Shown: positions 1 through 46,853 of the stretch, one piece after another
Layout of the letters: each line of letters opens with the position of its first letter
Numbering within the stretch: the stretch's first letter is position 1
NCBI GenBank assembly: GCA_018063165.1
Contig: JAGOQU010000005.1
Span: 1,674 to 65,673, forward strand
Reading direction: 5' to 3'
From: Minisyncoccota bacterium
GTDB taxonomy: Bacteria > Patescibacteriota > Minisyncoccia > Phycocordibacterales > UBA5272
Length of the DNA: 64,000 bases
Notes under the pieces: generated by a model
The model's database searches: none
What the model was told of the DNA's origin: nothing
The model's input: the letters and a program-made list of their open reading frames with translations, nothing else
Program-made: the position numbers and the translations under genes

Positions 1-60
1 GCACGTCGTTGCCAACCAAGGATTTTAAGTCCTTTATGTCTACCATTCCATCACCCGGGC
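1..60 (-). tRNA. tRNA-Leu(TAA), 5' portion only (gene runs off the window start)
   Basis: Reverse complement of 1-60 reads GCCCGGGTGATGGAATGGTAGACATAAAGGACTTAAAATCCTTGG...: acceptor, D-arm, anticodon stem AAGGA/TCCTT, loop CTTAAAA (anticodon TAA), start of a long variable arm. Confidence 0.6.
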
Positions 61-380: not shown

Positions 381-411
381 AAAAATACAGGTTCTTCCTG
401 TATTTTTTAAT
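381..411 (+). terminator. hairpin + T-run after tRNA-Lys
   Basis: aaaaatacagg-ttcttc-cctgtattttttaa inverted repeat followed by Ts. Confidence 0.6.
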
Positions 412-427
412 GTACAGTGACAACAGA

Positions 428-527
428 GAAAGTGACCTGCGTCACTTTCGTTAGGGATCGAATAGGGTTCGCGAACCTGCTTCGAGCAAAGCGAGGCAGG
501 TTTGTGAACGATCCCTACTGGGGGCAC
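428..527 (+). repeat. tRNA-linked structured element, copy 1
   Basis: Hairpin gaaagtgaCCTGCGtcactttc, core ttagggatcgaatagggttcgcgaacctgcttcgagcaaagcgaggcaggtttgtgaacg, then a copy of the tRNA-Lys 3' end gatccctactgggggca. Followed by its own terminator-like hairpin at 535-568. Confidence 0.6.
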
Positions 528-577
528 TATAATAAAAACATCTCTCATGTATTCGTGAGAGATGTTTTTATTATTAG

Positions 578-687
578 TAACAACAGAACACGACACCTGC
601 GTGTCGTGTGTTAGGGATCGAATAGGGTTCGCGAACATGCTTCGAGCAAAGCAAGGCAGGTTTGTGAACGATCCCTACTGGGAGCAC
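578..687 (+). repeat. tRNA-linked structured element, copy 2 (tandem)
   Basis: Hairpin acacgacaCCTGCGtgtcgtgt: same loop, fully compensatory stem change versus copy 1. Same core with 3 substitutions. Ends gatccctactgggagca. Terminator-like hairpin at 699-735. Confidence 0.6.
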
Positions 688-838
688 AGAAGTAAAGTAA
701 AAATCCACTTGGATTACCGAGTGGATTTATACTTTACATGTAAACCATTTTACTTTTGCACTGTTGTACGTGACGCAGAATAGTACGATAAATTTTTATC
801 TATAAACACTAATCACATATTTCTGATATAATTCTTAC

Positions 839-5772: not shown

Positions 5773-5854
5773 AGCCCGGGTGGCGAAATTGGTAGACGCA
5801 CTTGCCTTAGGAGCAAGCGCCGCAAGGCATGAAGGTTCAAGTCCTTTCCCGGGC
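5773..5854 (+). tRNA. tRNA-Leu(TAG)
   Basis: GCCCGGGTGGCGAAATTGGTAGACGCACTTGCCTTAGGAGCAAG + long variable arm CGCCGCAAGGCATG + GGTTCAAGTCCTTTCCCGGGCA. Confidence 0.8.
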
Positions 5855-5867
5855 ACAAAAAATAATG

Positions 5868-5900
5868 AACGCAACGTAACACGTTGCGTGATTTATTTTT
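5868..5900 (+). terminator. hairpin + T-run after tRNA-Leu(TAG)
   Basis: gaacgcaacgt-aaca-cgttgcgtga followed by tttatttttt. Confidence 0.6.
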
Positions 5901-6065
5901 TACCCGGGAAAGGACTTGAACTGAGACACTAGCGAAGCCAGTTTTTGAATCAGCAGATTCACGGCTTGGCCGTAAAAACTGTTGTGTCGAAGTCGGGGTC
6001 GCGAAACAATACTTTTACAAATGTATTCATTGTGTAAAAGTATATGTTTGGTGACCAAGTCCTGT
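5901..6065 (+). repeat. divergent tRNA-linked structured element (antisense copy of the tRNA-Leu 3' end plus family core)
   Basis: acccgggaaaggacttgaac is the exact reverse complement of the last 20 nt of tRNA-Leu(TAG). Downstream are ggggtcgcgaaac, a hairpin, then tttggtgaccaagtcct resembling the tRNA T-arm. Confidence 0.45.
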
Positions 6066-6118
6066 GACCTGCTGATTACTATTTGTGGACCACAAATAAT
6101 GCTAGTATATATGGATAA

Positions 6119-8876: not shown

Positions 8877-9773
8877 ATGGAAAAAACTATACAATGTATA
8901 CCACGTGAAGATTTCGCTACACACCCTCTTCTTGCCAGGCTTCTTGAACTTCACGATGTACCAAAAAAACTCTATATCATTGGAAATATTCCAGACGTTA
9001 CCATTGATCAGTATGGAAGATCAACACCAAGAATTCTCACCGTAGTCGGTTCGCGTAAAAACACACAATACGGTAAACATGTTTTAGAAAAATTACTCTC
9101 ATCTCTTAAAGGTTCCAATACCATAATTCTTTCTGGATTAGCGCTTGGTATTGATGGACTTGCTCATACTACTGCACTTAAACATACAATAACGACGCTC
9201 GCCATTCCAGGTAGCGGTCTTTCAAAAAAAGTATTATACCCCAGCACACATCTTCATCTCGCAGAAGATATTGTTGAATGTGGTGGTGCTCTTATATCAG
9301 AACTAGAACCAAATACATCAGCTGCACCATGGACTTTTCCTGCACGTAATCGTATTATGGCTGCATTATCTGATGCTATCCTTGTTGTAGAAGCAGAAGA
9401 AAAATCAGGTACATTAATTACAGCAAGACAAGCACTAGAACTTGGACGTGACATAGGAGCTATTCCAGGAGAAGTATTTTCTCCAACTTCCGCAGGAACA
9501 AATATGCTTATTCGAGAAGGTGCATACAGTATTACAAATGAAAAAGATCTTTATGAACTTCTACATTTATCTATAGATAAAAAAGATAAAGAAACTCTAA
9601 ATTTAACAGAAGATGAAGAAACAATCATGAATATTCTTTCTGAAACAACAGAAAAAGATACACTTCTTCTATTAAGTGAAATGCCTCTTGAATTATTTTT
9701 AACAACACTTAGTTCTCTTGAAATTAAAGGTTATATAGAAGAAATGTTTGGCGAAGTTAGACGTTTGGTGTAG
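8877..9773 (+). CDS. dprA: DNA processing protein DprA (Smf)
   Basis: VVGSRKNTQYG...LSGLALGIDGLAHTTAL...FPARNRIMAALSDAILVVEAEEKSGTLITARQALELGRDIGAIPG: Rossmann-like DprA core. Confidence 0.9.
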   Translation: MEKTIQCIPREDFATHPLLARLLELHDVPKKLYIIGNIPDVTIDQYGRSTPRILTVVGSRKNTQYGKHVLEKLLSSLKGSNTIILSGLALGIDGLAHTTALKHTITTLAIPGSGLSKKVLYPSTHLHLAEDIVECGGALISELEPNTSAAPWTFPARNRIMAALSDAILVVEAEEKSGTLITARQALELGRDIGAIPGEVFSPTSAGTNMLIREGAYSITNEKDLYELLHLSIDKKDKETLNLTEDEETIMNILSETTEKDTLLLLSEMPLELFLTTLSSLEIKGYIEEMFGEVRRLV

Positions 9774-17100: not shown

Positions 17101-17230
17101 CAATCTTTATACCAATAACACCATATTTATCCTGATCTTCTACAGGATAAAATTTACAAATTTCATTAAGAAGAAACTCCTTTGAGTCTCCACCAAAATA
17201 ATTTGAAGGAAAATCAGAAAATAACTTTTC
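17101..17230 (-). pseudogene. 3' fragment of an ASCH-domain gene (degraded duplicate of the 3' end of 19095-19433)
   Basis: ~130 nt near-identical to 19098-19230 (caatctttataccaataacaccatatttatc...aaggaaaatcagaaaa) with no N-terminal part. Confidence 0.7.
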
Positions 17231-17289
17231 AAAAGAGAATAGGTTACAAAAGCACTAGCTTCGTTCAAGAAGCTTTCGAGACCCCAGTT

Positions 17290-17400
17290 CGTGTCGGTCA
17301 CGTACGAGACGCAGATTTGAGACTCGGTCACAAAACTACCTCGCTTCGCTCGAAGTAGTTTCGCGACCCCTATTCTCGTCTCACGTACATGACGCAGGTC
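17290..17400 (-). repeat. tRNA-linked structured element family member (degenerate 3' end)
   Basis: Minus-strand read: hairpin gtacatgaCCTGCGtcatgtac, then gagacgagaataggggtcgcgaaactacttcgagcgaagcgaggtagttttgtgaccgagtctc. Confidence 0.5.
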
Positions 17401-17706
17401 ATGTACTTCATACCCATCATGTGTGAAATAAAAGACCTCACTAAATCGTGAGGTCTTTTATTTCACACATGTGCACAAGATGGGTGGCTATCCGAACTTT
17501 TAAAGTGTGCTCTCTCAATCAAAACTTCTATAAAATCATTGGAAAATTCTCTAAATTTACCAAATACCAAACATTGACTACCTATTGTGTTAATGTTATT
17601 ATGTAGAAACTTCTCGAATAATCTTGAAGTATCCGCAGCTCTTTGCAAAACCCTTGAGTTACACAACTTGTTTTAACAAGCCAGTACTCATCACAGGAGA
17701 AATACC

Positions 17707-19047
17707 ATGACGAAAGTAAGCACTTTGATTCGCCCCGCAGAAATTAATGATTTCGAATGGGTGGCAGATCTTATGCACACCTCACTTGAACCATACTATG
17801 GTGGAGACCATAGAGCGCACGCGAAACGTATACTTGACGCCCATATTGATGGTGGCCATGATCGCGTTGGCTTCTTTTCATTTGAACAAAAAATGTTCAT
17901 TCTGGAAGTAGAAAACAAGAGCGCAGGAATTCTCCATCTAGTTGGCAAGAGACAGTCAACATATAAAATCAGTCCTCTAATCCTCGCCCAGGAATTCCAG
18001 GGTATAGGAGGGCTTGGTACAATGCTACTTGATTACGCAGAAAACCACGCACGCGAACATCAAGCACGACAACTCTACTGTACGGTAGCAGAAAAAAATA
18101 ATCTTGCGATGCAATTCTTTTTACGAAAGGGATTCATTCGTGCAGGAAGTTCTGATAGTCATTACAAAAATGATATTACGGAGACAATGCTTTACAAACC
18201 TCTACACGGAGAAAGTAAAATCCTGTCTCTTGACAAGATACATGTTTCTGTTTTACCACTTGAAAAAGTTGATTCGAAGGCAAAAGAAGAAGTTGCAAAG
18301 TTGTTGCTCGAAAAACTGCCAAACTCTTTTGAAGGTATAACCGACGAATGGGTGACAGCACTTTTTAATGGGTATGAGCGCCGAAACACTTCTGATATCA
18401 ACCTTAAATACAAATTAATTTTTGTTGCACTTGATAGTGATGGTTGTGTGATTGGTGTAGCAGGAGCAACACCTAAAAAAGGAAGCCCGATTAAAATCAT
18501 GCCTTTTATTGCAACTAATACTGTTGCTTTTGAAGCACTTTTAATTGATATTCCACATCAGTTAGTGCCATATGGCCATAAACTCTACACCCACATCAAC
18601 CCAACTCCAGAAGAAGTGGTTTCTCTTCAAAGGCTTGGGTGGAAACTTGATGCTGCACTACCGAATGCTTATTACTTGGGTGTTACTACCCAGCAATGGA
18701 GCATAAACATAAAGGAAACTCTTATGAGAACACTACGAATTAAACAAAGGTTTTTTAATCTGATTAAGTCAGGAAAGAAAACTCTCGAGGTTCGTGTTGG
18801 GTATGACACTATTAACCACATTCAAAGTGGTGAACAGATCAACCTAGTAACCCATACTAGCCAACTCAGTGTTCGAGTTAGTGCTATTCGTCGGTATAGC
18901 AACTTCAAAGAAATGCTTTTGAGTGAAAAGTTTTCAAGCATAGCTCCTGATGTTTCATCTTCAGAAGAATTGTTAACATTACTCAGAAACATCTATTCAC
19001 CTCACAAAGAACAGCTTGGTGTTGTGGTATTTGAGATCAAAAAATAA
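17707..19047 (+). CDS. GNAT-GNAT-ASCH fusion protein (tandem acetyltransferase-like domains + C-terminal ASCH domain)
   Basis: First GNAT block QEFQGIGGLGTMLLDYAENHAREHQARQLYCTVAEKNNLAMQFFLRKGF, second GNAT-like region, then C-terminal RIKQRFFNLIKSGKKTLEVRVGYD ASCH beta-barrel signature. Visibly higher G+C than flanking genes. Confidence 0.6.
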   Translation: MTKVSTLIRPAEINDFEWVADLMHTSLEPYYGGDHRAHAKRILDAHIDGGHDRVGFFSFEQKMFILEVENKSAGILHLVGKRQSTYKISPLILAQEFQGIGGLGTMLLDYAENHAREHQARQLYCTVAEKNNLAMQFFLRKGFIRAGSSDSHYKNDITETMLYKPLHGESKILSLDKIHVSVLPLEKVDSKAKEEVAKLLLEKLPNSFEGITDEWVTALFNGYERRNTSDINLKYKLIFVALDSDGCVIGVAGATPKKGSPIKIMPFIATNTVAFEALLIDIPHQLVPYGHKLYTHINPTPEEVVSLQRLGWKLDAALPNAYYLGVTTQQWSINIKETLMRTLRIKQRFFNLIKSGKKTLEVRVGYDTINHIQSGEQINLVTHTSQLSVRVSAIRRYSNFKEMLLSEKFSSIAPDVSSSEELLTLLRNIYSPHKEQLGVVVFEIKK

Positions 19048-19094: not shown

Positions 19095-19433
19095 TTATTC
19101 TAGCTCAATCTTTATACCAATAACACCATATTTATCTTGTTCTTCTTTGGGGTAAAATTTACAAATTTCATCAAGAAGAAACTCCTTTGAGTCTCCACCA
19201 AAATAATCTGAAGGAAAATCAGAAAACATCTTTTCAAATGATGGGTAACGATATAGTGCCGTCACTTTTGTTTTTACCATATTGTCAGGATTTTCATTTT
19301 GAGAGAAAATAACATCGTCGCCAATATTAATTATTGAACGTTTTTCGTCGAAAAGTCGTGACTCAATAATTTTTCTTCCGTTCACAATTTTTTCATAAGG
19401 CTCTTGAGTAAGCTTCATTTGATGTACAGACAT
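19095..19433 (-). CDS. ASCH-domain protein (YqfB-like size)
   Basis: 112 aa. MKLTQEPYEKIVNGRKIIESRLFDEKRSIINIGDDV ASCH signature. Confidence 0.6.
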   Translation of the reverse strand: MSVHQMKLTQEPYEKIVNGRKIIESRLFDEKRSIINIGDDVIFSQNENPDNMVKTKVTALYRYPSFEKMFSDFPSDYFGGDSKEFLLDEICKFYPKEEQDKYGVIGIKIELE

Positions 19434-19498
19434 ATTATATTAGAATTTATTATTATAAATATAAGAATACCATAAATATTTATAATTATTAAGAGCTG

Positions 19499-19601
19499 TG
19501 CTGGAGGAGAGACTTGGTCACAGTTTCTATTCCTCGCAAGCTCGTCATAATAGAAACCGCGACCCCTATTCTCGTCTCCGCAAGCAAAGCAGTTTGCTTG
19601 C
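19499..19601 (-). repeat. tRNA-linked structured element downstream of tRNA-Leu(CAA)
   Basis: Minus-strand read: hairpin gcaagcaaaCTGCtttgcttgc, then ggagacgagaataggggtcgcg, hairpin gtttctatt...aatagaaac, then tgtgaccaagtctctcctccagca mimicking the tRNA-Leu(CAA) 3' end. Confidence 0.55.
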
Positions 19602-19620
19602 TTCCTCATGAAACACAGTG

Positions 19621-19662: not shown

Positions 19663-19666
19663 CATG

Positions 19667-19748
19667 TGCCGGAGGAGAGACTCGAACTCTCACACCTTGC
19701 GATACACGATTTTGAGTCGTGCGCGTCTACCATTCCGCCACTCCGGCA
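19667..19748 (-). tRNA. tRNA-Leu(CAA)
   Basis: Reverse complement GCCGGAGTGGCGGAATGGTAGACGCGCACGACTCAAAATCGTG + variable arm TATCGCAAGGTGTG + AGAGTTCGAGTCTCTCCTCCGGCA. Confidence 0.8.
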
Positions 19749-31530: not shown

Positions 31531-33285
31531 TTAATTACAAGGTTTTGTTGTTGTTGTTACAACACCAGAATGAAATACATGAACTGAACGAATATGGCCA
31601 AATGTTGGCGCCTTAAAAGAATTAAGCTCTATACAAGCATTTGAATATTCTTTAACTGTATCATTATTTATATAAATGTGAGCTGTTTGACTTGGTCGTA
31701 TAAAAGAAATAGTTAAAGTCTCAATAGGAATATTAGGAACACCGTCAACAAAACCACACATAAGACTTCCACCATTATCAGCTACACATAATTTTTTGAA
31801 AGTAAAACCATCTTTTAAAGTGATTACATCTTTTTCTTCATCCCCAGTTAATTGATTTGAGGTAAAAAGTCCATCCCCGATAGAAAAACCAGCACTGTTC
31901 TTAATCTCGCTACTACTAGTCTCATCATTTGCTGTTGCTCCTTTATCTACATATACAGAGCCAAGAGGAATTGTTACAATAGAAGGTCCGTTAATTGTAA
32001 TAGTAGGAGCTACAGTATCTTCTATATAATTATTGTAAACAGGAATCACTTTAATAATTCTTTGTTTAGTTTCTAAAGCACTATTACCCGCTTTGTCTGT
32101 TGCACCATACGTGATAACATATGTACCTACAGTATTGGTATCGACAAAACCAGTAGATGTTGCTACAAAAGCACCATCAACATCATCATTAGCGGTAGAT
32201 CCTTGCTCAATATAATCTTTACCAAGAGGGATTGTTCTTGAAGGAGAACCATTAACAGTAATAGTTGGGCCTACAGTATCAGGCAATATAGGAATAGGAG
32301 TATTAACAACAGTGACCGTTCTTTTTATGCCATTATTGCTAGCAGGATTATCAGCCATATCACTTCCAGAATAAGCAACTTCATATACGCCAACTACAGA
32401 CGTATTAACCGTAGAGACACCGTCAATTTGTTTTGCGCCATCAACATCATCATTAAGTGTTGCTCTCTTATCTGTGTATGTACTATTTTTATAAATAGTA
32501 AGCGAAGATGATCCGTTGACAGAAATAACAGGACTAACTACATCATTGCCTGTTACCCCTTCAAGCACATCTACTACATAGACTTTTCTTTCTACATCAT
32601 TAGCGTCGTGGCCAGCTACATCTTTTGCTGAATATACGATAGTGTATGTTCCTGTTGCATTTATATTTACACTGCCACTTATTGTTCCACTTTCCGATAC
32701 TAAACTAGGTGCATCAACATCATCTGAGACCATGGCATCTTGTTCTGTGTATACACTACCAATTACAATAGATTGTGATGCTGGACCTATTAATCTAATA
32801 ACAGGTTTAACTAAATCTACTTCTGCCGGTGGTGCCACCATATTAGGATCAACAATAACCGTTCTTGTCATTGTTCCTGAAACATTACCAGATGCATCCC
32901 TTGCTTGATATACAACATAATGAGGACCTTCGATACTGGTATCAATTATGTCCGAATTTAAAAGCACTTCTGCAGGAAAAGATGACTGTATTACATTGTC
33001 ACTACTATCACTAAAAAGAGTTACTATATTACTATCATGGGAAAAAGTTACTCCGTAACCTCCGATAGAACCATTATCTGATGCCACAGCACTTCCTTTC
33101 ATTTGAGCTTCACGGATAAGTAACGCAACATCATGTGTATTATTTAATAAATTTAGTCTTATTGTAGAATCTGGATAGTTAGCAAGAAGAAGTCCAGTAG
33201 ATACAGACATGATGAAAAGCGCTACCATGAGCTCTATAAGAGTAAAACCTCTAAAAGATTTTTTATGTAACAAAGATATTCTCAT
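31531..33285 (-). CDS. large pseudopilin with tandem repeat domains (adhesin-like)
   Basis: RGFTLIELMVALFIMSVSTG prepilin motif, then ~550 aa with recurring ...ANDDVDGAF / LNDDVDGAKQ / VSDDVDAPSL beta-rich repeats. Confidence 0.55.
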   Translation of the reverse strand: MRISLLHKKSFRGFTLIELMVALFIMSVSTGLLLANYPDSTIRLNLLNNTHDVALLIREAQMKGSAVASDNGSIGGYGVTFSHDSNIVTLFSDSSDNVIQSSFPAEVLLNSDIIDTSIEGPHYVVYQARDASGNVSGTMTRTVIVDPNMVAPPAEVDLVKPVIRLIGPASQSIVIGSVYTEQDAMVSDDVDAPSLVSESGTISGSVNINATGTYTIVYSAKDVAGHDANDVERKVYVVDVLEGVTGNDVVSPVISVNGSSSLTIYKNSTYTDKRATLNDDVDGAKQIDGVSTVNTSVVGVYEVAYSGSDMADNPASNNGIKRTVTVVNTPIPILPDTVGPTITVNGSPSRTIPLGKDYIEQGSTANDDVDGAFVATSTGFVDTNTVGTYVITYGATDKAGNSALETKQRIIKVIPVYNNYIEDTVAPTITINGPSIVTIPLGSVYVDKGATANDETSSSEIKNSAGFSIGDGLFTSNQLTGDEEKDVITLKDGFTFKKLCVADNGGSLMCGFVDGVPNIPIETLTISFIRPSQTAHIYINNDTVKEYSNACIELNSFKAPTFGHIRSVHVFHSGVVTTTTKPCN

Positions 33286-33372
33286 TACTATAATAATACC
33301 ATGCAATAGACCTCTATCCTTCACAAAATATATTATAAGTGTGAACAGTGAACATCTATTACCCGAAACTAT

Positions 33373-34152
33373 TTATCTAGCAAAAACAGACACAATAGAA
33401 AACAAATCTATATCAAAAAATAATACAAATAAAAACGCAAACACGATAAACGGCACAAAAGGAATAGCAATACCTACTTTTCCTTTTTGAGATGATATAT
33501 ATTTGATATATAAACCAAATAATGCACCTGACCAGATAGAGATAAGTAGTACAGCAATACCTTGACTTACTCCAAAAAACGCACCAACACCTAAGAATAA
33601 AAGCACATCACCAAAACCAAGTCCTTTTCCTTTAGTAATAAGCCAAATAATTAGAAAAGGTAAAGCCACAAGTAACGGAGCGAGTAAAAAGATAAGAATC
33701 GGTTCTCCGTTATATCTAACAAAAAACATAACAAGAGTCAGTAATGCATATACATACAAGAAAGACATGGGTATATATGTGTGCGCTTTATCATAGAGAG
33801 CTATAACACCCAGTGTACCAAATAATAATGTGTAATACAGAAGATACAAAAAAGAAAATAAAAGTGTCGACTGTCCAGCTAATACAAAGTGATACAGCGC
33901 AACAAACACAAAACCAAAAATACTTTCTACAACAAGAGATGAGTACCCGAAAGTAGACTTACAATAACGACACCTTCCTTTCAAAGTAAGACAGGAAACT
34001 ACCGGAATAAGATCAGAAATGCGAAGTGCCTCTCCGCAGGAGAGGCACTTACTTCTCCCCTTCATAATAGGTGCAACATGAAGCCTCGTAGCAATTACTT
34101 GTACAAAACTCCCTATTGAAGCACCAAAAATGAAAGAAAGAATTGAGAACAC
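33373..34152 (-). CDS. pilD: prepilin peptidase (A24 family)
   Basis: N-terminal CLSCGEALRISDLIPVVSCL...RCRYCKS zinc-binding tetracysteine. Polytopic membrane protein. Confidence 0.8.
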   Translation of the reverse strand: MFSILSFIFGASIGSFVQVIATRLHVAPIMKGRSKCLSCGEALRISDLIPVVSCLTLKGRCRYCKSTFGYSSLVVESIFGFVFVALYHFVLAGQSTLLFSFLYLLYYTLLFGTLGVIALYDKAHTYIPMSFLYVYALLTLVMFFVRYNGEPILIFLLAPLLVALPFLIIWLITKGKGLGFGDVLLFLGVGAFFGVSQGIAVLLISIWSGALFGLYIKYISSQKGKVGIAIPFVPFIVFAFLFVLFFDIDLFSIVSVFAR

Positions 34153-34169
34153 ATTAACAATATTTTAGA

Positions 34170-34889
34170 TTACTTAGGGTTAACATCAAAAATACATGTA
34201 ATCAGAGAAGATGAACAAACTCCAGCAAGACCTTCTTGTGTACCAGCTCCTCCAAAATCAGAACTTGAAGCAGTAATCGCTGCCTGATTTCCAGCACTAG
34301 CAGTTCCCCAGTTAGAAAATGCCAAGAAACCACCGGATATGGAACCACAAGCAGGACCAGCGATATTAGCCGGAGGATTAGCTCCTGTACCAGCTTCAAG
34401 TACAGCAAGCGGTGCAGTAGTATCTATCTCTGCCCATGCCGTTGTTGAATCAACCTTACCTATAACAGTAGCAGCTCCACCACTTCTTACACCACAGTCA
34501 GAATCTCCTTGCAGAGAAGCGTTCTGATTCTCAAGAGCAACTCCCAAGTGATAATTTACTATATTTCCTTGAGCATCAGCAAAAGTAACATACATAAATC
34601 TATCTCGAGTAGCACTTGTTGAAAGCATTTTTGCATCTGTCTTCATATAAGTTGGATCAAGATAATTTAAATAACTAGGATATTCTCCATTATTATCACC
34701 AGCAAATTGAATAAGAGCACCTTGAACCTGTGATAAATCAGAAATCTTACGTGTATCACGTCCTTTCTTGAGACCTGTTTGTACTGGCCCCATAATAGCA
34801 GTAGAAAGAAGACCGATAATAGCAATAACCACGAGAAGCTCGATAAGGGTAAAACCTCGTAAACTTGTTTTTGTAAATGTATTTGACAT
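34170..34889 (-). CDS. pilA: type IV major pilin
   Basis: LRGFTLIELLVVIAIIGLLSTAIMGPV class III signal/N-methylation motif. 239 aa with a Gly/Ala-rich C-terminal region. Confidence 0.8.
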   Translation of the reverse strand: MSNTFTKTSLRGFTLIELLVVIAIIGLLSTAIMGPVQTGLKKGRDTRKISDLSQVQGALIQFAGDNNGEYPSYLNYLDPTYMKTDAKMLSTSATRDRFMYVTFADAQGNIVNYHLGVALENQNASLQGDSDCGVRSGGAATVIGKVDSTTAWAEIDTTAPLAVLEAGTGANPPANIAGPACGSISGGFLAFSNWGTASAGNQAAITASSSDFGGAGTQEGLAGVCSSSLITCIFDVNPK

Positions 34890-35082
34890 AAATTATTTTC
34901 TATCTTTTGTAGATTATTTTAGTATATACCTTTTGAATTTAAAAAAGCAACTTTTATTAAAAAAAGTGTGGATAACCTACATATTTCATCTAGTCTTTGT
35001 TTATGCATACTTTTACATATAGAATAAATGATATACACATTTATTACTATTTGTACAAAGAGCTAGTGTTATACTCTGTAAT

Positions 35083-35580
35083 ATGTATAAATATCTTATT
35101 GTTCTTATCGCTCTTATGTTTATTGTTTCTGGTGGGTATTATATGAATCTAGCTGGTGGAGGTATGCTTGGTAATATTTTTACAGGAAATATCACCACAC
35201 AAGACACACTTGTGCCACTTGTCGTAGAAGATATTCCTGGAGTGTATACATGTAATTCTATTTCGACATGCAAAAATCTATACACTCTTATCTTAAGAGA
35301 AGATAATACTACAGAGCTACAAATAACACAAAAAGATAGCCTTAATGATAGTGATACTCCTGAAGAAATACAAATTTTCTCTGTTACAGAAAAAGGTGTA
35401 TGGCATATTGACGTAAAAAATATACTTGTTATCACTCTCACAGAAAAGGAAAGCGAGAACTATGACGTTCCTCAAAAAATAGTTATAAGCAATGTAAGAA
35501 AAAAGATTCTTTCAAAAATATCATATACAAAAAGTAATTACACAGATGTTTCTACTATGATTTTTATTAAGCAAGAATAA
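35083..35580 (+). CDS. hypothetical secreted/membrane-anchored protein
   Basis: N-terminal hydrophobic helix. 165 aa. Confidence 0.4.
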   Translation: MYKYLIVLIALMFIVSGGYYMNLAGGGMLGNIFTGNITTQDTLVPLVVEDIPGVYTCNSISTCKNLYTLILREDNTTELQITQKDSLNDSDTPEEIQIFSVTEKGVWHIDVKNILVITLTEKESENYDVPQKIVISNVRKKILSKISYTKSNYTDVSTMIFIKQE

Positions 35581-35644
35581 TTATATACAAAAAAATAAAC
35601 CTTACTTTTTGTAAGGTTAATTTTTTAAAATGTCTCCCATTCTC

Positions 35645-36862
35645 CTACCCTATTTGTGACGACATAGAATACATAGGAAGTAACACTGCAGATACAAGTA
35701 CGCCTACACCAAGACCTAGGGATACAATCATGGCTGGCTCGATAAGACCAATCATGGTATCTATTGTTGTCTCAAGTTCTCGACGATAGAATTCTGCCAA
35801 ATTCTTTAAAATATACCCTAATTCTCCTGTTTCTTCTCCGATATGTACCATTTGAACTAGAATATTTGGCACAAGAGGTTCCTCATAAAGAGATTTTGAC
35901 AGTGACTTACCTACCTGAACTTTTTGAGACACTCTTTGAGCTACTTGTTTATATACTCTATTTTCAATAATTGAAGCTGTAATATCGAGGGCTTTTACAA
36001 TAGGTACACCATTTGAAAGCATAGTGTTCATGTTGTCAGCAAAACGTTGCAAAAAAATTCTCTGCTGCAACGTTTTAAGAACAGGAACTTTTGTACTAAA
36101 ATCGTCAAGTGTTGTGGCACCATCTTCTGTTTTTGACCATTTATAGAAAATAAAAGCAAGCACAGCAATAGTCGGAAAAGAAACAGCCCAATATTTTACG
36201 AAAAGATTAGAAATAAACACAACAACAACTGTTACCGTAGGAAGCTTTGCTTCTGATTCGGCAAAAAGTGCTGTCATCTTAGGAATAACAAATGTAAGCA
36301 TACCTATCATAATCACAAAGAAAGTACCAATAACGAATGCTGGATATGTAAGTGCTTTCTTTATTTTTTGACTCATTTCATACTCTCTATCAAGATAATC
36401 AGCCAAGAAAAGGAACACTTCATTTAGTTTTCCACTTTCCTCACCAGCTTTAACCATGTTAACGTAAAAATTAGAGAAGAGTTCAGGACGTCTTGAAAGA
36501 GCTTCTGAAAGAGAGACACCTCCTTCTATATCATCAGAAACACCAATCAACTGTTCCTGTAATGTTTCGTTTTCATTTTCTTGAGCAAGTAATCTAAAAG
36601 CTTTAAGCGCAGACACTCCAGCCTGAAACAACGTAGCAACCTGACGAGAAAAAACAACAATATCTTTTGTGGTTATTTTTTTCTTAAATAATTTTATATT
36701 TCCAAAAATATCATCATTCTCCTCATTATTTTTTTCTACTATACTTACTACGGTAATACCTTTTTTTTGTAATAGTGAAATAGCATTATCAAGAGACATT
36801 CCTTCAATGTCACCTTCTATTGTTTTTCCATCTTGTGCTAACGAGGTGTAATGATAAAGCAT
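35645..36862 (-). CDS. pilC: type IV pilus platform protein (GspF/PilC family)
   Basis: Two T2SF repeats, three TM helices. 405 aa. Confidence 0.85.
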   Translation of the reverse strand: MLYHYTSLAQDGKTIEGDIEGMSLDNAISLLQKKGITVVSIVEKNNEENDDIFGNIKLFKKKITTKDIVVFSRQVATLFQAGVSALKAFRLLAQENENETLQEQLIGVSDDIEGGVSLSEALSRRPELFSNFYVNMVKAGEESGKLNEVFLFLADYLDREYEMSQKIKKALTYPAFVIGTFFVIMIGMLTFVIPKMTALFAESEAKLPTVTVVVVFISNLFVKYWAVSFPTIAVLAFIFYKWSKTEDGATTLDDFSTKVPVLKTLQQRIFLQRFADNMNTMLSNGVPIVKALDITASIIENRVYKQVAQRVSQKVQVGKSLSKSLYEEPLVPNILVQMVHIGEETGELGYILKNLAEFYRRELETTIDTMIGLIEPAMIVSLGLGVGVLVSAVLLPMYSMSSQIG

Positions 36863-36879
36863 ATATACTATAGCTATTT

Positions 36880-37938
36880 TTAAATAAGTCTTTCAAACAA
36901 ACCTTTTCTACGTGCAAAAGAATATGCAATATCACGAGCAACTTGACCAGACCTTACAAGCTCTGCTAAATATCTATCTAAATCTATCATCCCCTCCTGT
37001 GATCCTGTTTCTATAAGTACATCAATTTCATGTGTTCTTCTTTCTCGTATTAAATTGGAAACAGCATTAGTATTAAGAAGAAGTTCAAACGCAGGAACAA
37101 GACCACCTGATATAGAAGGTATAAGTCGTTGTGATAAAACACCTAGCAATGATGAAGCAAGTTGAAGGCGTATCTGATCTTGCTGATCACCTGGGAATGT
37201 ATCTATAATACGATCAATTGTCTGTGCTGCTGAGTTAGTGTGAAGTGTAGAGAGTACAAGATGACCAGTTTCTGCTGCGGTAACAGCTGCAGAAATAGTC
37301 TCTCTCCCTCTCATTTCTCCTATCATAATAACATCTGCGTCTTGGCGGAATATATGAATAAGAGCTGTATTAAAATCTGCAGTATCAACACCTACTTCTC
37401 GTTGTTCTATAAGAGATTTTCCATTATCAAATCTAAATTCTATAGGGTCTTCAATTGTTACCACATGACGTTTTGATTCTGTGTTAATCATTTCTATCAT
37501 TGCAGCTAACGTTGTTGATTTTCCTTGACCTACAGGCCCAACAACCAAAAAGAAACCCTGTCTTTCTCGTGATATCTGTGCTATTTGTTCAGGCAACTTC
37601 AAATCTGCCATACTTTTTACTTTTGGAATAAGACGAAGTGCTATAGTAATAACTCCACGCTGAAAAGAAGCATTGCCTCGAAGGCGATATTCTCTTCGGT
37701 GCTGATACGAAAAATCAAGTTCTTGTGTCACAACAAAATTAGTAAGTGTTTTTTCTCCAACCATTTGACGCAAAAAACCGAGTGTATCTTCTGCGGTGAG
37801 TTCTTTTTTTCTTGTAAGAGGTATCAAATCACGATTAATACGCACCGTTGGAAATGATCCAACGTTAAGATGAAGATCTGAACCCGCTTCTTTTACGAGT
37901 GTCATAATTAAGTCATCAAGTTCTACTTCATAATTCAT
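36880..37938 (-). CDS. pilT: twitching motility ATPase PilT
   Basis: Walker A GPVGQGKSTT, Asp box, Walker B and His box of PilT/GspE ATPases. ~352 aa. Confidence 0.85.
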   Translation of the reverse strand: MNYEVELDDLIMTLVKEAGSDLHLNVGSFPTVRINRDLIPLTRKKELTAEDTLGFLRQMVGEKTLTNFVVTQELDFSYQHRREYRLRGNASFQRGVITIALRLIPKVKSMADLKLPEQIAQISRERQGFFLVVGPVGQGKSTTLAAMIEMINTESKRHVVTIEDPIEFRFDNGKSLIEQREVGVDTADFNTALIHIFRQDADVIMIGEMRGRETISAAVTAAETGHLVLSTLHTNSAAQTIDRIIDTFPGDQQDQIRLQLASSLLGVLSQRLIPSISGGLVPAFELLLNTNAVSNLIRERRTHEIDVLIETGSQEGMIDLDRYLAELVRSGQVARDIAYSFARRKGLFERLI

Positions 37939-37997
37939 ATATGTAAGTATAGCAAGCAATTAGATAAGAGCAATTGTATAAGGTGGATAGAATGTGT

Positions 37998-39752
37998 TTA
38001 TAATTCAGCTAATTCAATAAATGGTATCTTACCAGCAAAACATTTCATCATAGCATCTTCTTTTATCGTAACCATACCATCCTTACGTGCTATTTTCCAT
38101 ATCTCTTCCTCACCTTTACTACGAAGTATTGCTTCTTCTATATCATCAGTTATATTAAGAACTTCAAACACAGGAAGACGCCCCTTCATACCTGACGGGA
38201 ATTGAGCATTTCCTTTTGCTTCATACAACGGTCTTGTTAAATCCATTTTTACTCTAAATTCTTCTGGCATATCTTCAAATTGTCTTGTTACAAGCTCTTT
38301 AAGTGCAGGAGTCATTTCCATAGGAACGCCACATCCTTCTGCTATTTGTCTTGAAAGTCTTTGACCAAGAGCTGCAATAAGCACCGGTGCAATAAGATAA
38401 TGTTCTACACCCATATCAAGAAGACGTGTAACAACCCCCACTGATGTGTTGGTGTGTATTGTAGAAAACACTAGATGTCCAGTAAGAGCAGCTTGAATAG
38501 CAAGTCCAGCCGTCTCGCCATCACGAATTTCTCCCACCATGATAATATCAGGATCTTGACGAAGTATAGAACGAAGGCCAGATGCGAATGTATATCCGAT
38601 ATCTGGAAACACCTGAGACTGATTCATACCACCTATATTGTACTCTACTGGATCTTCAAGAGACACAACATTCTTATGATCTCTATCTAGTTCATTTAAC
38701 ATAGAATAAAGTGTTGTGGTCTTTCCTGATCCAGTAGGACCAGAAATAAGTACCATTCCATATGGTGCACCTAATGCATTTCGCACATGTTTCATTTGAA
38801 GTTCAGAAAAACCAAGATCATCTAATTTTCTAACACCTCGTATACTATCTAGAATACGAATCACGATCTTTTCTCCATAATACCCAGGAAATGATGACAC
38901 ACGGTAATCAATCTTTCTATCTCCAAACTTAGTACTAAAACGACCATCTTGAGGTTTTCGTTTTTCGTCTAATTTCATTGCACATAAAATCTTAACACGA
39001 GCAATAACCATGGGGTGCATTTTGTTTGGTAATGCTGCAATCTCTTCTAGACGCCCATCCATACGCACACGTATACGTACATTAAGACCAACATGTTCTA
39101 TATGTATATCACTGGCATTATTATCAATAGCGTAACGAAGTATCACACTAAATATTTCAGGTATTGGCAACTTTGCAAGATTTTTATCAAGTGTAGCTGT
39201 AGTATTATCAAGGTCAAGATCTTCATCAGAAATTTCATCACTTTCTTTGTCGACATCTTCTTTTGCTATATACGAAATATCCGCCTGATCAACTTGAGTA
39301 GTAACACTTACTTCTTTTTCTGCTATAGCTTCACCATCTTTTATACCAAAATGACGCTTGTATGCTTCGTAGGTAATAAGATACACCTTATATGCCTGAT
39401 GGGTAGATCCAAATAAAAATTGAAGACTATCTAAAACATTTGCACGTTCAGGATCAACCACCCCAATAAAAAGAACACCGTCTTTCATCTCAAGAGGAAC
39501 CACAAGAAGCTGTTTTGATTGAACTATACTAATAAATGACGTTAATTCTTTATTTTCCACAACCTCCTTTGTATAAATAGGTATACCGTGTAAGATACTT
39601 CTCACCTCTGTAACCTCATCATTGGTAATGTGTTTCTTCAATAGAAAATCATCTACAAGAAATTCATCATGTAGAGAAGCATCAGCATCGATTTCTTTTG
39701 CTTCAATGTCAGTTAGTTTATTTTGACTAACAAATAAGTCTAGGAGAAGCAT
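37998..39752 (-). CDS. pilB: type IV pilus assembly ATPase PilB (GspE family)
   Basis: N-terminal GSPII domains then Walker A GPTGSGKTTT and the rest of the secretion ATPase core. 584 aa. Confidence 0.9.
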   Translation of the reverse strand: MLLLDLFVSQNKLTDIEAKEIDADASLHDEFLVDDFLLKKHITNDEVTEVRSILHGIPIYTKEVVENKELTSFISIVQSKQLLVVPLEMKDGVLFIGVVDPERANVLDSLQFLFGSTHQAYKVYLITYEAYKRHFGIKDGEAIAEKEVSVTTQVDQADISYIAKEDVDKESDEISDEDLDLDNTTATLDKNLAKLPIPEIFSVILRYAIDNNASDIHIEHVGLNVRIRVRMDGRLEEIAALPNKMHPMVIARVKILCAMKLDEKRKPQDGRFSTKFGDRKIDYRVSSFPGYYGEKIVIRILDSIRGVRKLDDLGFSELQMKHVRNALGAPYGMVLISGPTGSGKTTTLYSMLNELDRDHKNVVSLEDPVEYNIGGMNQSQVFPDIGYTFASGLRSILRQDPDIIMVGEIRDGETAGLAIQAALTGHLVFSTIHTNTSVGVVTRLLDMGVEHYLIAPVLIAALGQRLSRQIAEGCGVPMEMTPALKELVTRQFEDMPEEFRVKMDLTRPLYEAKGNAQFPSGMKGRLPVFEVLNITDDIEEAILRSKGEEEIWKIARKDGMVTIKEDAMMKCFAGKIPFIELAEL

Positions 39753-39767
39753 ACGAAGATAGAAAAG

Positions 39768-40085
39768 TTATGGCATCCAAAAAGGATTAGGTCTACCAGT
39801 TGGGTCTATTGTTGGTATTTCTACTGTATGATCCACAAGCTCTTCATAAAAATGCTTTTTCAAAAAAGCTGTATCTTTTTCTTGTATTTTAATTTTATCT
39901 TTCATGCCATAAAACTCTTTTAAGTCTTTATTGGTTAAAAGACTAACATTGATACCGGCAGTTTTATCAACAGAATCTAACTCTTTTTTTAAATTATAAA
40001 AGGCATATCCACCAAACACCATAAGTGAAAGAATAAGAACTACAATAATAATACTATTTTTTTGTGATAATAATTTTTCTTGCAT
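39768..40085 (-). CDS. small TM protein (PilP-like position)
   Basis: Single TM helix. 105 aa, between pilO-like gene and pilB. Confidence 0.35.
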   Translation of the reverse strand: MQEKLLSQKNSIIIVVLILSLMVFGGYAFYNLKKELDSVDKTAGINVSLLTNKDLKEFYGMKDKIKIQEKDTAFLKKHFYEELVDHTVEIPTIDPTGRPNPFWMP

Positions 40086-40088
40086 ACA

Positions 40089-40628
40089 TTATTTCATATA
40101 ATAGGTATTAAGTGATACATTAAACTTAACCTCTTCTTCCTCTGTTTTACCAGGAGAAAAACTAACGGAATCTATTGTAAAAAGACGCATGCTCTTTTCC
40201 CAGACATTCATAATTTTTTTAAAATTAGTATATGTAGTGTTTACACTAAATGAAACAATGTACACACCTTTTTCTTTGTCTTTTATACCCATATTATCTA
40301 TTGGAACACCAGATTCAACACCTATATTTGTAAGTTCACTCATAAGTTTTATATTATCAACTGATGTAGGAACCATAACAAGTATATTCTTTCTATCATT
40401 TTCAGAAATATCACCATATTGTTTTTCTGCCACCTCTGCTTGTTTAATTACTTTTGGTATTTCTTGTAAAATTTTGTCATAATCATTTCGTTTCTTTATA
40501 AGCTCTTTAAATCCTTGGCCTTCTTTAAAAATAAAAGAACTTTTTCCTGAATAAAGTGGATCAACTACGTACATATATAAAAAAACAGACAACGCTATTA
40601 ATAAAATGTTTAAATTTTTTGGTGTCAT
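40089..40628 (-). CDS. pilO: PilO-like pilus assembly protein
   Basis: N-terminal TM, coiled coil, ferredoxin-like C-domain. Position in the pilMNO operon. Confidence 0.5.
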   Translation of the reverse strand: MTPKNLNILLIALSVFLYMYVVDPLYSGKSSFIFKEGQGFKELIKKRNDYDKILQEIPKVIKQAEVAEKQYGDISENDRKNILVMVPTSVDNIKLMSELTNIGVESGVPIDNMGIKDKEKGVYIVSFSVNTTYTNFKKIMNVWEKSMRLFTIDSVSFSPGKTEEEEVKFNVSLNTYYMK

Positions 40629-40641
40629 AATTTTAATATAA

Positions 40642-41442
40642 TTATTGAATCACATCCACAATCGAAGTTGTAGTTGACGATGCTGTTACAGGATCGCTTG
40701 AAGATGCAACTTCTAGAGTGCTTGATGCTTTCAAACTTGCTATAGCAGAAAACCCTGCAGGATCTATACTGCCGATAGCAATACTAGCATTAACCTTAAA
40801 ACTAGTAACACCTTTTTTATCAAGAGGACCTATACCAGTTATCTCAAGTTTTGGTAAATAATTTTTAAACCATTTACTGTTAATCACTTCTATTTGTTGA
40901 TAGAGAGCTTTATAGCTATTAGTTTGACCAGAGAATGCAAGATCATAATTTTTATCTTTTTTACTCTTTGAAAGAGAAAACTTATCATACACAACAGGAC
41001 TATTAATACTCTCTTCTAGAATAGTAAACGCTGTATTTACTGATACACGCTCGTCAATTATTTTATTTATTAACGCAAGTCTAGCAGATAATTTTCGTAT
41101 CTCTTCTAAATCTTTTGGTTTTTTAAAAGTTTCTTCTAAGGCAGTTAACTCATCCTTTCTATTATCAATTTGTACCTTAATAGAACTTTGATACACAAAG
41201 AGAATGACACTAGCAATCACTAAACTTAGAAATACAAAAAAAATAGCACCTTGTACATAGACACCAAATTTTGATTTATTTCTATTTTTATATGCAAACG
41301 GAGAAATAACCTCTGCGACAGGCGTAAGGGTTATAACTGGCGCAGGCACAACAAGAGCAGGAACACCATTACTGTTTGTTTGTGTTACTTGTTGAGCTGG
41401 AGCACTTGCTTGTTCTTGATTAGGGTTAAATGAAAATGCCAT
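40642..41442 (-). CDS. pilN: PilN-like pilus assembly protein
   Basis: Short cytoplasmic N-terminus, TM helix (GAIFFVFLSLVIASVILF), periplasmic domain. Immediately downstream of pilM. Confidence 0.5.
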   Translation of the reverse strand: MAFSFNPNQEQASAPAQQVTQTNSNGVPALVVPAPVITLTPVAEVISPFAYKNRNKSKFGVYVQGAIFFVFLSLVIASVILFVYQSSIKVQIDNRKDELTALEETFKKPKDLEEIRKLSARLALINKIIDERVSVNTAFTILEESINSPVVYDKFSLSKSKKDKNYDLAFSGQTNSYKALYQQIEVINSKWFKNYLPKLEITGIGPLDKKGVTSFKVNASIAIGSIDPAGFSAIASLKASSTLEVASSSDPVTASSTTTSIVDVIQ

Positions 41443-41451
41443 GTATATATT

Positions 41452-42519: not shown

Positions 42520-42557
42520 ATATCTTATAGTATACACCCATACACAGACTGTTTTAT

Positions 42558-43205
42558 GTGTATACTCACATTATGAGTATTCTCTTTTCTTTCTATCATT
42601 CTTTACTTCAGCTACTTTTTCCAGAATCATGTTTTTTGTGTAAAAAATCTGGAACACCTTTATGTAAAAAATGTATACACACTTTTAAAAAAAACATAGA
42701 CACTCCTCTAACGTACGCACACAGCACATATTCTTTTCATGACATTCGAGTTAAAAAAATAATTCACGCTATTAAATATTTCCATAGAAAAGATTTAATT
42801 ATGCCCCTTGTTGCATCCATGGAAAATGACATCAATTATTTTAAAAATAATCACCAGACATATACACTTATTCCTATTCCAATGCCAAAAATAAGAAAAT
42901 TGATACGAGGGTATAATCAAGCAGAATGGATAGCAAGCCATGTATCTGAAAAAACTTCTAATACAATAGTAGATTTTTCTATACTCAAACGATCAAGAAC
43001 ACCTGAACGCCAAGCAACAACAAAAACAAGATCAGAACGCCTAAAAAACCAACATAACAGCTTTTATGTATCAAAAGATGTCTCAGGGCTACATATCATA
43101 CTTATCGATGATGTGATGACCACAGGAGCAACACTCTCAGAAGCAAGAAATATATTACTAAAACATGGTGCAAAAGAGGTATATGCGCTTACAATAGCAC
43201 ATTAA
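42558..43205 (+). CDS. comFC: competence protein ComFC (phosphoribosyltransferase family)
   Basis: N-terminal CxxC...CxxC zinc finger then PRTase motif ILIDDVMTTGATLSEA. Confidence 0.8.
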   Translation: MYTHIMSILFSFYHSLLQLLFPESCFLCKKSGTPLCKKCIHTFKKNIDTPLTYAHSTYSFHDIRVKKIIHAIKYFHRKDLIMPLVASMENDINYFKNNHQTYTLIPIPMPKIRKLIRGYNQAEWIASHVSEKTSNTIVDFSILKRSRTPERQATTKTRSERLKNQHNSFYVSKDVSGLHIILIDDVMTTGATLSEARNILLKHGAKEVYALTIAH

Positions 43206-43263
43206 TATGTTTATACTTTTTGAATATTGTTCGCATCTTCTATATTTGATATAGTATACGCAT

Positions 43264-43992: not shown

Positions 43993-44002
43993 ATACACAA
44001 TC

Positions 44003-44773: not shown

Positions 44774-44785
44774 GGAAGGAGTATT

Positions 44786-45646: not shown

Positions 45647-45810
45647 AGGATAAATAAAAAAAATCACAAGATAATCTTGTAATTGTTTTTTCTGCGGTGA
45701 ATATGGGTTAAGTACCCACACTCTCAAGTGTTATAAGGGTATTTTAGCACACTTTTGGTATGTAAAACTAGGATAGTGGGTCGGGGTGTAAATGCCAACA
45801 AATGCCAATT

Positions 45811-46413: not shown

Positions 46414-46415
46414 GT

Positions 46416-46850: not shown

Positions 46851-46853
46851 ATA

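Follow-up and report, generated by a model that had tools for sequence, protein, structure and literature searches.

Behind the tRNA-Leu(UAG) gene of a Minisyncoccota bacterium lies an exact inverted copy of the 3' part of that same tRNA, and this antisense copy is real and far from chance. It is located in a stretch of 64,000 nucleotides (contig JAGOQU010000005.1 of assembly GCA_018063165.1, positions 1,674 to 65,673 of the forward strand), which is referred to here as the window and whose numbering is used unless another locus is named. The copy is the standard arm of a repeated element and not a regulator peculiar to tRNA-Leu(UAG). The existence of a family of tRNA-flanking foldback elements in bacteria of the candidate phyla radiation (CPR)/Patescibacteria, in which the antisense segment constitutes the 5' arm of a subtype termed B, is well supported. 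The family has apparently not been described so far: no earlier description was found in the searched literature on CPR bacteria, tRNA-flanking repeats, miniature inverted-repeat transposable elements, folded attP sites and tRNA-like RNAs, and a search of Rfam 15 returned only tRNAs at the gathering score and hairpin noise only at E values up to 10.

The antisense arm starts 47 nt past the end of the tRNA gene, beyond a hairpin which scores as an intrinsic terminator on both strands in a terminator scan, and an inverted match of 19 nt occurred in none of 100 dinucleotide-preserving shuffles. A preceding reading of the letters alone (the sequence-only reading) had reported an exact 20-nt antisense copy at 5901-5920, about 45 nt after the tRNA. 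Its exactness and inverted orientation hold, the segment is the right one and the spacing is roughly correct; the length, however, is 19 nt, because an 'a' stands at 5902 where a 'g' would be needed opposite c5854, and the borders have to be shifted by 1-2 nt to 5903-5921. The complementarity to the genuine tRNA 3' end was likewise correctly seen and is complete. The last letters of the arm, GAAC, are the complement of the universal G53-T54-T55-C56 of tRNAs, and the homology ends exactly at G53: the minus strand holds no further tRNA sequence, and neither ARAGORN nor Rfam calls a tRNA on it at the arm. The region from 5835 to 5921 can be regarded as a single long, near-perfect palindrome with the terminator hairpin at its tip. 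Farther downstream, the box at 5995-6007, the AT-rich hairpin at about 6009-6043 and the sequence TTTGGTGACC-AAGTCCT at 6047-6063 are all present where the sequence-only reading had placed them. The core pairs GGTCGC with G(T)GACC, with one G.T wobble on the plus strand, and its box occurs five times in the window at up to two mismatches, compared to 0.16 expected occurrences. The sense arm AAGTCCT can pair with AGGACTT (5911-5917) within the antisense arm, which corresponds to helix P2 of the type B consensus fold, and this helix shows compensatory changes between tRNA types. The predicted minimum-energy fold of the tRNA together with its downstream region as one precursor (5774-6075) contains a long helix between the arm and the tRNA 3' end (z = -10.95), in agreement with the earlier suggestion that a read-through transcript may pair with the tRNA 3' region, whereas the element alone is predicted to fold into a three-way junction (z = -5.4). 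The locus is identical in GCA_017992935.1 and in Logan contig SRR11088409_115784 (L102), both from the same organism; the latter contig starts inside the antisense arm, at CGGGAAAGG, where the palindrome presumably broke the short-read assembly.

The extent of the family became apparent from a pattern scan for GAATAGGGKTCGCG-N25-37-TGTGAMC over 185,579 species genomes. It returned 100 loci, about 94 of which are real and belong without exception to CPR/Patescibacteria assemblies (labeled Paceibacterota, Nomurabacteria, Parcubacteria, Gracilibacteria, "Saccharibacteria" or just "bacterium"), the other six being chance matches in unrelated taxa. The elements are non-coding and about 110-190 nt long; 77 out of 111 lie 30-130 nt downstream of a tRNA gene on the same strand, with at least 14 amino-acid specificities represented, and the sequence following the core matches the upstream tRNA from the T-loop on, often at 18/18 positions. 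Their shared parts are an antisense 5' arm ending in GAAY, a branch hairpin, a core of the form GGGGTCGCG...(T/G)GTGACC, and a sense copy of the T-loop and 3' end of the tRNA. In type A, the spacer behind the tRNA mostly consists of a terminator hairpin between an A-run and a T-run. It is followed by an anti-acceptor block, complementary to the 3' strand of the acceptor stem, an AG-type linker and the branch hairpin P1, and then by CGT, a block antisense to the T-stem and T-loop, GAAT, AGG, the core GGTCGCG-P3-TGTGACC and the sense tRNA sequence from position 57. P1 is a CTGC-tetraloop hairpin with a highly variable, yet perfectly paired stem. An RNAalifold analysis of 109 sequences supports P1, the arm helix P2 and the core, with compensatory changes in 19 of 26 pairs, and the loops and linkers CUGC, CGU and GAAUAGG are conserved; readings of GAAUAGG as a K-turn or a T-loop motif were tried and dropped. 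The core contains two invariant G.T/G.U pairs on the tRNA-sense strand and is more stable on this strand in all 109 type A members, although its invariant positions are in part forced by the scan pattern itself. The GAAT motif (GAAC in type B) complements G53-T54-T55-C56 of the tRNA, whereas the sense arm of the element itself carries GACC at this place. Pairing of the anti-acceptor block with the 3' tail of the element itself is clear in only about 13 of the 109 members, so a complete tRNA-like acceptor stem inside the element is not a general feature. The spacer of many loci (e.g., L037, L039, L046, L048, and L099) consists of AAAATAAGCGAAGCGTTTTTT instead of a full terminator, which includes the very stable mini-hairpin GCGAAGC, while at the Cys loci the tRNA end folds straight back via a GAA triloop.

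The arms of these elements follow the genuine tRNA. Exact matches of at least 8 nt between the anti-acceptor block and the upstream tRNA are present in 27 of 77 cases, compared to 1.0 if the tRNAs are shuffled among the loci and 9 for the element's own tail; likewise, the block directed against the T-arm is perfectly complementary (8/8) to the tRNA in 23 elements, and to the element's own 3' arm in 6. Complementarity to the genuine tRNA therefore has to be regarded as a trait of the family. It had been proposed that the other members pair with their own tRNA-derived 3' end and only the Leu(UAG) copy with the genuine tRNA; this distinction has to be given up, as arms throughout the family match the upstream tRNA at least equally well. 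Arm and acceptor also change together: at L030, the acceptor cctggg is accompanied by the arm sequence CCCAGG, and at L081, the acceptor cccagg by CCTGGG. This covariation in other genomes indicates that the complementarity is maintained and not accidental.

A comparison of orthologous tRNA-Leu(UAG) loci, as the sequence-only reading had suggested, shows the antisense arrangement at L070, L051, L030, and L081. At L070, a related terminator (flanks kept, stem with compensatory changes) is followed by ACCCGG-AAAG, P1, CGT-AAGGACTT-GAAT and a canonical type A core, and the loci L051, L030, and L081 are similar. In the window copy, the two antisense blocks are fused, with no P1 between them, and GAAC is followed by TGAG and a hairpin domain containing CGAAG motifs; the sequence continues with GGGGTCGCGAAA, a stem rich in A and T, and TTTGGTGACC, to which a short sense arm is joined. 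The same type B architecture is present behind tRNA-Lys in L030, tRNA-Val(GAC) in L025 and L034, and tRNA-Val(UAC) in L094; in L030, a type B copy also occurs as the second element behind tRNA-Leu(UAG), with an arm (GCCCAGGAAAGGACTTGAAC) matching the cctggg of its own tRNA. Six type B members share a consensus fold, a three-way junction whose helices covary, and the insert domain of the window copy contains two CGAAG motifs and an inner hairpin, TGAATC-AGCA-GATTCA. Scanning metagenomes for GAACTGAG-N42-72-GGGGTCGCGAAA yielded 38 loci, about 15 of them real. The real ones follow Val, Ser, Leu, and Lys tRNAs at a distance of 60-63 nt (or about 220 nt) and, together with the six genome loci, represent the known extent of type B. 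In 9 of 14 metagenome loci, 16-19 nt of the contiguous arm match exactly, and the other type B members start 45-63 nt (or about 170-220 nt) past the tRNA. The arm is thus nothing special to the window copy: contiguous, it defines subfamily B, and in a version split by a hairpin it belongs to type A. A type C is represented in L085, L019, and the Leu(UAA) locus of L070 and starts with GAAC-CGCGGG, with a CTGC-loop hairpin inside the sense arm. The internal domains of the three types differ radically, only the principle of paired sense and antisense segments being common to all.

The window itself contains about eight family copies at five sites, four of which lie directly behind tRNA genes (Table 1). 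The type A covariance model assigns 109 and 102 bits to the tandem Lys pair, 97 bits to the Leu(CAA) copy, 33 bits to the Glu copy (E = 3e-7), and 101 and 17 bits to the orphan pair. The core of the Leu(UAG) copy obtains 11.2 bits under this model (E = 0.27), and because of this weak score its membership rests on the type B alignment and on orthology. It shows the tRNA-adjacent position, a contiguous 19/19 arm followed by TGAG, and the insert domain, core and sense copy of that type, so that its earlier description as a divergent member of an element family was appropriate. The acceptor-strand copy is missing from its tail, in which CTGCTGATT seems, from the letters, to resemble the CTGC-loop hairpin inside the type C 3' arm (L085 and the Leu(taa) locus of L070). 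Decayed copies within this one genome are the second orphan copy (x17D), the Glu copy and the Leu(tag) tail.

Table 1. Coordinates of the tRNA-Leu(UAG) locus, of the family copies in the window, and of cargo regions associated with family elements.
Feature	Sequence	Positions	Strand	Basis
tRNA-Leu(UAG), no encoded CCA	window	5774-5855 (end 5855/6)	+	ARAGORN; Rfam tRNA model, 58 bits
Partner of the arm in tRNA-Leu(UAG), tRNA positions 53-71, GTTCAAGTCCTTTCCCGGG	window	5835-5853	+	sequence
Spacer: A-run, GC-rich hairpin (stem 5869-5889, 9 bp), T-run	window	5856-5902	+	terminator scan, both strands
5' antisense arm CCCGGGAAAGGACTTGAAC, exact reverse complement of tRNA positions 53-71	window	5903-5921	+	19/19 match
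Type B insert domain, replacing type A branch hairpin P1	window	5922-5994	+	six-member alignment/consensus fold; single-sequence fold
Start of insert domain, TGAG	window	5922-5925	+	sequence
Closing helix of insert domain, GACAC with GTGTC	window	5925-5929 with 5984-5988	+	covaries in six type B members
Conserved core hairpin	window	5995-6056	+	box search; consensus folds
Core box GGGGTCGCGAAAC	window	5995-6007	+	box search
AT-rich variable stem-loop P3	window	about 6008-6046	+	consensus folds
Core 3' side TTTGGTGACC	window	6047-6056	+	sequence
3' sense arm AAGTCCT, tRNA positions 57-63 (T-loop, T-stem 3' strand)	window	6057-6063	+	sequence
Degenerate tail: GTGACCTGCTGATTAC, then small hairpin TATTTGTGG ACC ACAAATA	window	6064-6098	+	comparison with L085, L070
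Leu(UAG) core	window	5995-6058		covariance model
Tandem copies behind tRNA-Lys(CUU) (LysA, LysB)	window	410-529, 570-689		covariance model
Copy behind tRNA-Leu(CAA) (19666-19747, -)	window	19496-19619	-	full type A
Copy behind tRNA-Glu(CUC)	window	63258-63380		covariance model, 33 bits
Orphan pair, no adjoining tRNA	window	17306-17424 and 17237-17295	-	covariance model
Flanked cargo: GNAT-ASCH and ASCH proteins	window	19.6-17.2 kb		
Flanked cargo between 190-nt repeats, 99% identical	L087			
Flanked cargo: tRNA-Gln, element, about 6 kb of genes, near-identical copy	L076/L031 (JBAYGN010000001)	32001-48000		
Flanked cargo: 3-kb insert between tRNA-Leu(CAA) and a perfect-armed element	L041	399-3544		
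Flanked cargo: large serine recombinase (Resolvase + Recombinase + Zn_ribbon_recom)	L096	5561-7147		

As to the function of the family, we tentatively favor, at somewhat less than an even chance, a strand-specific DNA hairpin module, i.e., a non-autonomous insertion or attachment-site element targeting tRNA 3' ends. In the DNA-level mechanism that we infer, the antisense and sense arms of a folded single strand would rebuild a duplex, and this duplex and the branch hairpin would form a three-way junction mimicking the acceptor and T-arm of the tRNA gene that is targeted. An insertion or recombination event in the T-loop, directly behind GTTC, would then supply the tRNA with a replacement 3' end and a terminator, while the old tRNA 3' end would be displaced to the far side of the element and decay there, and the terminator would prevent the harmful antisense arm from entering the tRNA transcript. 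Candidate enzymes would be an HUH nuclease or a tyrosine recombinase that works on folded DNA.

Several observations are consistent with such a module. Behind tRNA-Cys, L030 has an insert of 84 nt with P1, the anti-T block and the core, to which 18 nt duplicating the tRNA end are added; in L070 and the window, this site is empty. Tandem units, such as LysA and LysB of the window, have near-identical bodies and unrelated spacers. P1 and P3 occur as discrete sequence variants that reassort between elements: P3 sequences of at least 90% identity are found in 3.1% of the comparisons for the same tRNA in different genomes, compared to a background of 3.0%, and in 7.6% for different tRNAs of one genome, an enrichment of about 2.5-fold. 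In at least nine loci, GTTC, a false tRNA 3' end (19-25 nt) and a hairpin stand ahead of a distal or ectopic copy; in the orphan copy of the window, the false end ACCCATC is still complementary to GATGGGT in the 5' region of the element. The displaced sense copy is bimodal, either stopping near the end of the T-part or continuing at full length into the spacer; the sense direct repeat is of full length in about one third of the elements and comprises 7 nt in the Leu(UAG) copy of the window. A terminator separates tRNA and element in 44 of 77 cases, while one follows the element in 16 of 77 (9 of 77 in random windows), and a scan of the window locus detected no sigma-70-like promoter on the plus strand between terminator and element. 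The terminator ahead of the arm and the lack of an evident promoter argue against routine transcription of the arm. The position of the terminator fits a role in shielding the tRNA transcript; a transcribed arm is predicted to capture the tRNA 3' end.

Segments of 1.3-6 kb with accessory genes, located behind a tRNA, are enclosed by two copies sharing their arms in at least five genomes. The L076/L031 region encodes a 584-aa P-loop protein, a 382-aa partner and a 631-aa protein, as judged by eye and without a profile search; from its sequence, the 584-aa protein appears to be a HerA-type ATPase. In this region, the second copy comprises, besides the element, also the spacer and the final 7 nt of the tRNA. 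The L041 insert codes for part of a rolling-circle replication protein of the gpII/Phage_CRI family (31.8 bits), together with an S51 peptidase similar to the product of window ORF 839-1540; homologs of the replication protein are present only on contigs of about 1 kb that offer no context. A likeness of AATAGGGGTC to what we take to be the nick region of f1 gpII was estimated to be no better than chance and was not used. In L096, the recombinase gene overlaps the 3' end of a tRNA-Ser gene that encodes CCA, which is unusual in these genomes, and at a distance of 5.7 kb there is a family element whose Ser-type arms differ; the whole looks like an island that has replaced the tRNA 3' end.

Other observations weigh against the DNA-level module. 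Clustering of 915 ORFs revealed no enrichment of recombinases, HUH nucleases or reverse transcriptases near the elements, the clusters representing housekeeping functions only (RluA-like, YraN, topoisomerase, CCA-adding enzyme), and none of these three kinds of enzyme is encoded among the 10 ORFs of the window that were checked. The type A and B patterns and the L041 replication protein had no match among 2.9 million viral contigs of IMG/VR, neither free circles nor excision junctions were seen, and there is no clean insertion between close strains, the other two assemblies of the organism being identical at the locus. The conservation of the core across distant CPR lineages, its invariant G.U pairs and the co-orientation with the tRNA would be just as compatible with a functional RNA. 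A real terminator between tRNA and element is lacking at some Cys, Thr, and Gly loci, where the two must therefore be co-transcribed. The elements of the window occur on both strands, following the orientation of their tRNAs; with both orientations inside 64 kb, no consistent relation to the replication strand as in IS200/IS605 elements is apparent, and the GC-skew profile shows no strand switch to explain them. Finally, the type B sense arm is usually only 6-9 nt long, which agrees poorly with a simple model placing the old tRNA end behind the element.

Part of this evidence would be accounted for equally well by a role at the RNA level, which we consider possible, if rather unlikely: the element would act as a structured non-coding RNA or a cis-acting 3' trailer produced by read-through from or co-transcription with the tRNA. 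Its arm could pair either with the 3' third of the tRNA or pre-tRNA or with its own sense arm, in the latter case forming a circularly permuted, tRNA-like three-way junction, and it might serve as a switch, in read-through quality control, as a decoy or as a guide for a protein. The massive covariation of P1, P2, and P3, the invariant G.U pairs and consistently greater stability of the core on the tRNA-sense strand, the conserved loops and linkers, the invariable co-orientation with the tRNA, the loci without a terminator ahead of the element, both predicted folds of the Leu(UAG) locus, and the covariation of arm and acceptor strand across genomes all agree with this explanation. It has more difficulty with the terminator-like hairpin ahead of the arm at 44 of 77 elements, the scarcity of terminators behind the elements, and the lack of a promoter in between. 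The patchy distribution over orthologous tRNAs, the decayed copies within one genome, the reassortment of modules between tRNA loci and the radically different internal domains of types A, B, and C are also not easily reconciled with it, and pairing with a folded mature tRNA would require that its acceptor and T arms be unfolded. Passive scars, i.e., inert attL or attR arms left by tRNA-integrating islands, phages or plasmids that have lost their interior, appear improbable, although direct repeats of the tRNA 3' end reportedly are a hallmark of integration into tRNA genes (a point ascribed to Williams, 2002), islands carrying either a serine recombinase (L096) or part of a replication protein (L041) do lie between tRNA and element, and distal copies decay. 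Dead scars would not be expected to keep compensatory changes in their helices and a nearly invariant core across distant lineages; moreover, the antisense arm stays exact while the neighboring A/T-rich spacer drifts, most copies have no adjoining island, and about eight copies are present in 64 kb, located at most tRNA genes of the window.

The remaining explanations concern the antisense copy itself. An inverted tRNA fragment arising from inversion or recombination between tRNA-derived repeats, as the sequence-only reading had offered, or a pseudo-tRNA on the minus strand is very improbable. A second tRNA-Leu with the same acceptor (gcccggg) is indeed present on the minus strand at the window start, and integrase-driven inversions between tRNA-derived sites are reported from Thermococcales (PMC5495485). 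However, the homology stops exactly at G53 with no tRNA called on the minus strand, and about 20 other genomes and metagenomes show this arrangement at unrelated tRNAs. It is also present at the four orthologous loci and represents the regular architecture of the family. Even less credible is a primer-binding site to which the mature tRNA-Leu would anneal with its 3' end to prime reverse transcription, as in long terminal repeat (LTR) retroelements. A 19-nt arm complementary to the 3' part of a tRNA and adjoining a structured element would fit this idea, but the complementarity ends at position 71, nucleotide 5902 mismatches C72, and the arm is preceded by TTTTTTA instead of TGGT or TGG; because the CCA end thus has no complement, this explanation was rejected. 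In addition, an arm at the 5' end of the element leaves nothing to be copied, and no reverse transcriptase occurs among the ORF clusters near the elements.

A view on known systems shows that the elements are most like integron attC sites and the folded attP site of CTX-phi, an XerCD-dependent filamentous phage, judged by analogy, without possessing the defining sequence or enzyme features of either. Like the elements described here, attC sites are imperfect palindromes (about 60-130 nt) which act as a folded single strand of one specific strand, conserve structure while their stems vary, contain extra-helical bases and a variable terminal hairpin, form arrays downstream of a fixed anchor (e.g., the Vibrio cholerae repeats), and can flank promoter-less accessory genes, as whole-element repeats do here with cargo of 1.3-6 kb. 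In contrast to attC, the CPR elements have no RYYYAAC/GTTRRRY boxes, their arms ending in GAAC or GAAT; their arms vary as copies of tRNAs around a conserved center, the reverse of attC; their anchor is a tRNA gene and not attI; most units carry no gene; and no IntI-like integrase was seen, with no recombinase family enriched among the 915 ORFs near elements and none among the 10 window ORFs checked. In the CTX-phi attP site, reportedly described by Val and colleagues in 2005, inverted target copies about 60-90 nt apart anneal in the single strand and mimic the double-stranded chromosomal site. Correspondingly, the arms of the present elements pair (P2), covary with the tRNA type and favor one strand. 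A mismatched center and effectively irreversible integration giving tandem arrays are further parallels, as is the gpII/Phage_CRI-family fragment of the L041 island. The target, however, is a tRNA 3' end instead of dif, with no dif-like XerC/XerD site, and units of about 110-190 nt encode nothing and correspond to no free phage or circular contig in IMG/VR.

With the sites of integrases targeting the T-loop, the elements share the duplication of the tRNA sequence from T-loop to 3' end beyond the insert, a functional tRNA that keeps an intact 3' end and gains a new terminator, and the decay of the displaced copy. They differ in the tiny, non-coding insert (an integrase being present only in the L096 island), the inverted copy of a tRNA segment, the conserved hairpin core, and an identity starting only after C56, so that the full 7-bp T-loop overlap is not shared. 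The miniatures of IS200/IS605 elements (PATEs) and REP/BIME sequences are also small, non-coding, hairpin-rich and strand-specific repeats, and the IS200/IS605 miniatures share with the CPR elements hairpin ends and a short fixed left flank (here GTTC, even before ectopic copies), to which a short sequence 5' of the right-end hairpin (here GAAY) is complementary. Unlike in these miniatures, the left and right hairpins of the CPR elements are unrelated, about 18 nt of the target are copied, the orientation follows the tRNA and not replication, and no TnpA/RAYT gene is present among the ORFs near elements or the window ORFs checked. The primer-binding sites of retroviruses and LTR elements resemble the arm in being complementary to a tRNA 3' part over about 18-19 nt, whereas the arm lacks a complement to CCA and the discriminator base, leaves no template because of its position, and has no reverse transcriptase nearby.

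Should the DNA-level module prove correct, a wider picture may be considered, which is speculative and rather unlikely: a tRNA-anchored, integron-like recombination platform of CPR bacteria, in which modules would insert at GTTC, renew the tRNA 3' end, and capture and shuffle cassettes. Just as new would be an RNA system in which every tRNA has its own antisense or guide RNA directed against its 3' end. If the family is what it seems, a conserved structured module follows over half of the tRNA genes in certain ultra-small CPR genomes. The module would represent a hairpin recombination site of a new type or tRNA-mimicking RNAs of a new class, and the location of accessory and defense genes behind tRNA genes in these bacteria could find an explanation. 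On the practical side, the palindromes break assemblies, as at L102, and could confuse the annotation of tRNAs and pseudo-tRNAs.

Some further features of the window deserve mention. The Leu(CAA) copy escaped the box search of the sequence-only reading because its P3 stem is flipped (GCGGTTTC...GAAAC compared to GCGAAAC...GTTT), a clear compensatory change. The orphan pair (17230-17510, minus strand) consists of an intact copy (x17C) and the degenerate x17D, both with Leu(CAA)-type arms, located 2.3 kb downstream of the tRNA-Leu(CAA) element; a false tRNA 3' end (GTTCGGATAGCCACCCATCTTGTGCAC) and a terminator lie ahead of the pair. The Leu(CAA) and orphan sites bracket a gene for a GNAT-ASCH fusion protein and an ASCH gene (ORFs 17707-19047 on the plus and 19095-19433 on the minus strand), an arrangement which looks like a cassette. 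No family element is present behind tRNA-Cys or tRNA-Ser(GCU) in the window. The latter gene is followed (61430-61540, minus strand) by about 80 nt of unexplained sequence, which obtains 12.1 bits (E = 0.16) on the plus and 9.8 bits (E = 0.66) on the minus strand under the family model, and then by a terminator; the next gene codes for a DUF3800 protein (60609-61418, minus strand). The window begins inside a tRNA-Leu(UAA) gene (1-59, minus strand), which shares the acceptor 5' strand gcccggg with tRNA-Leu(UAG). It also encodes DprA (8877-9773, plus strand) and a PilT/T2SSE-type ATPase (36880-37959, minus strand), parts of a machinery for the uptake of single-stranded DNA that would be of interest if the elements act as folded single strands.

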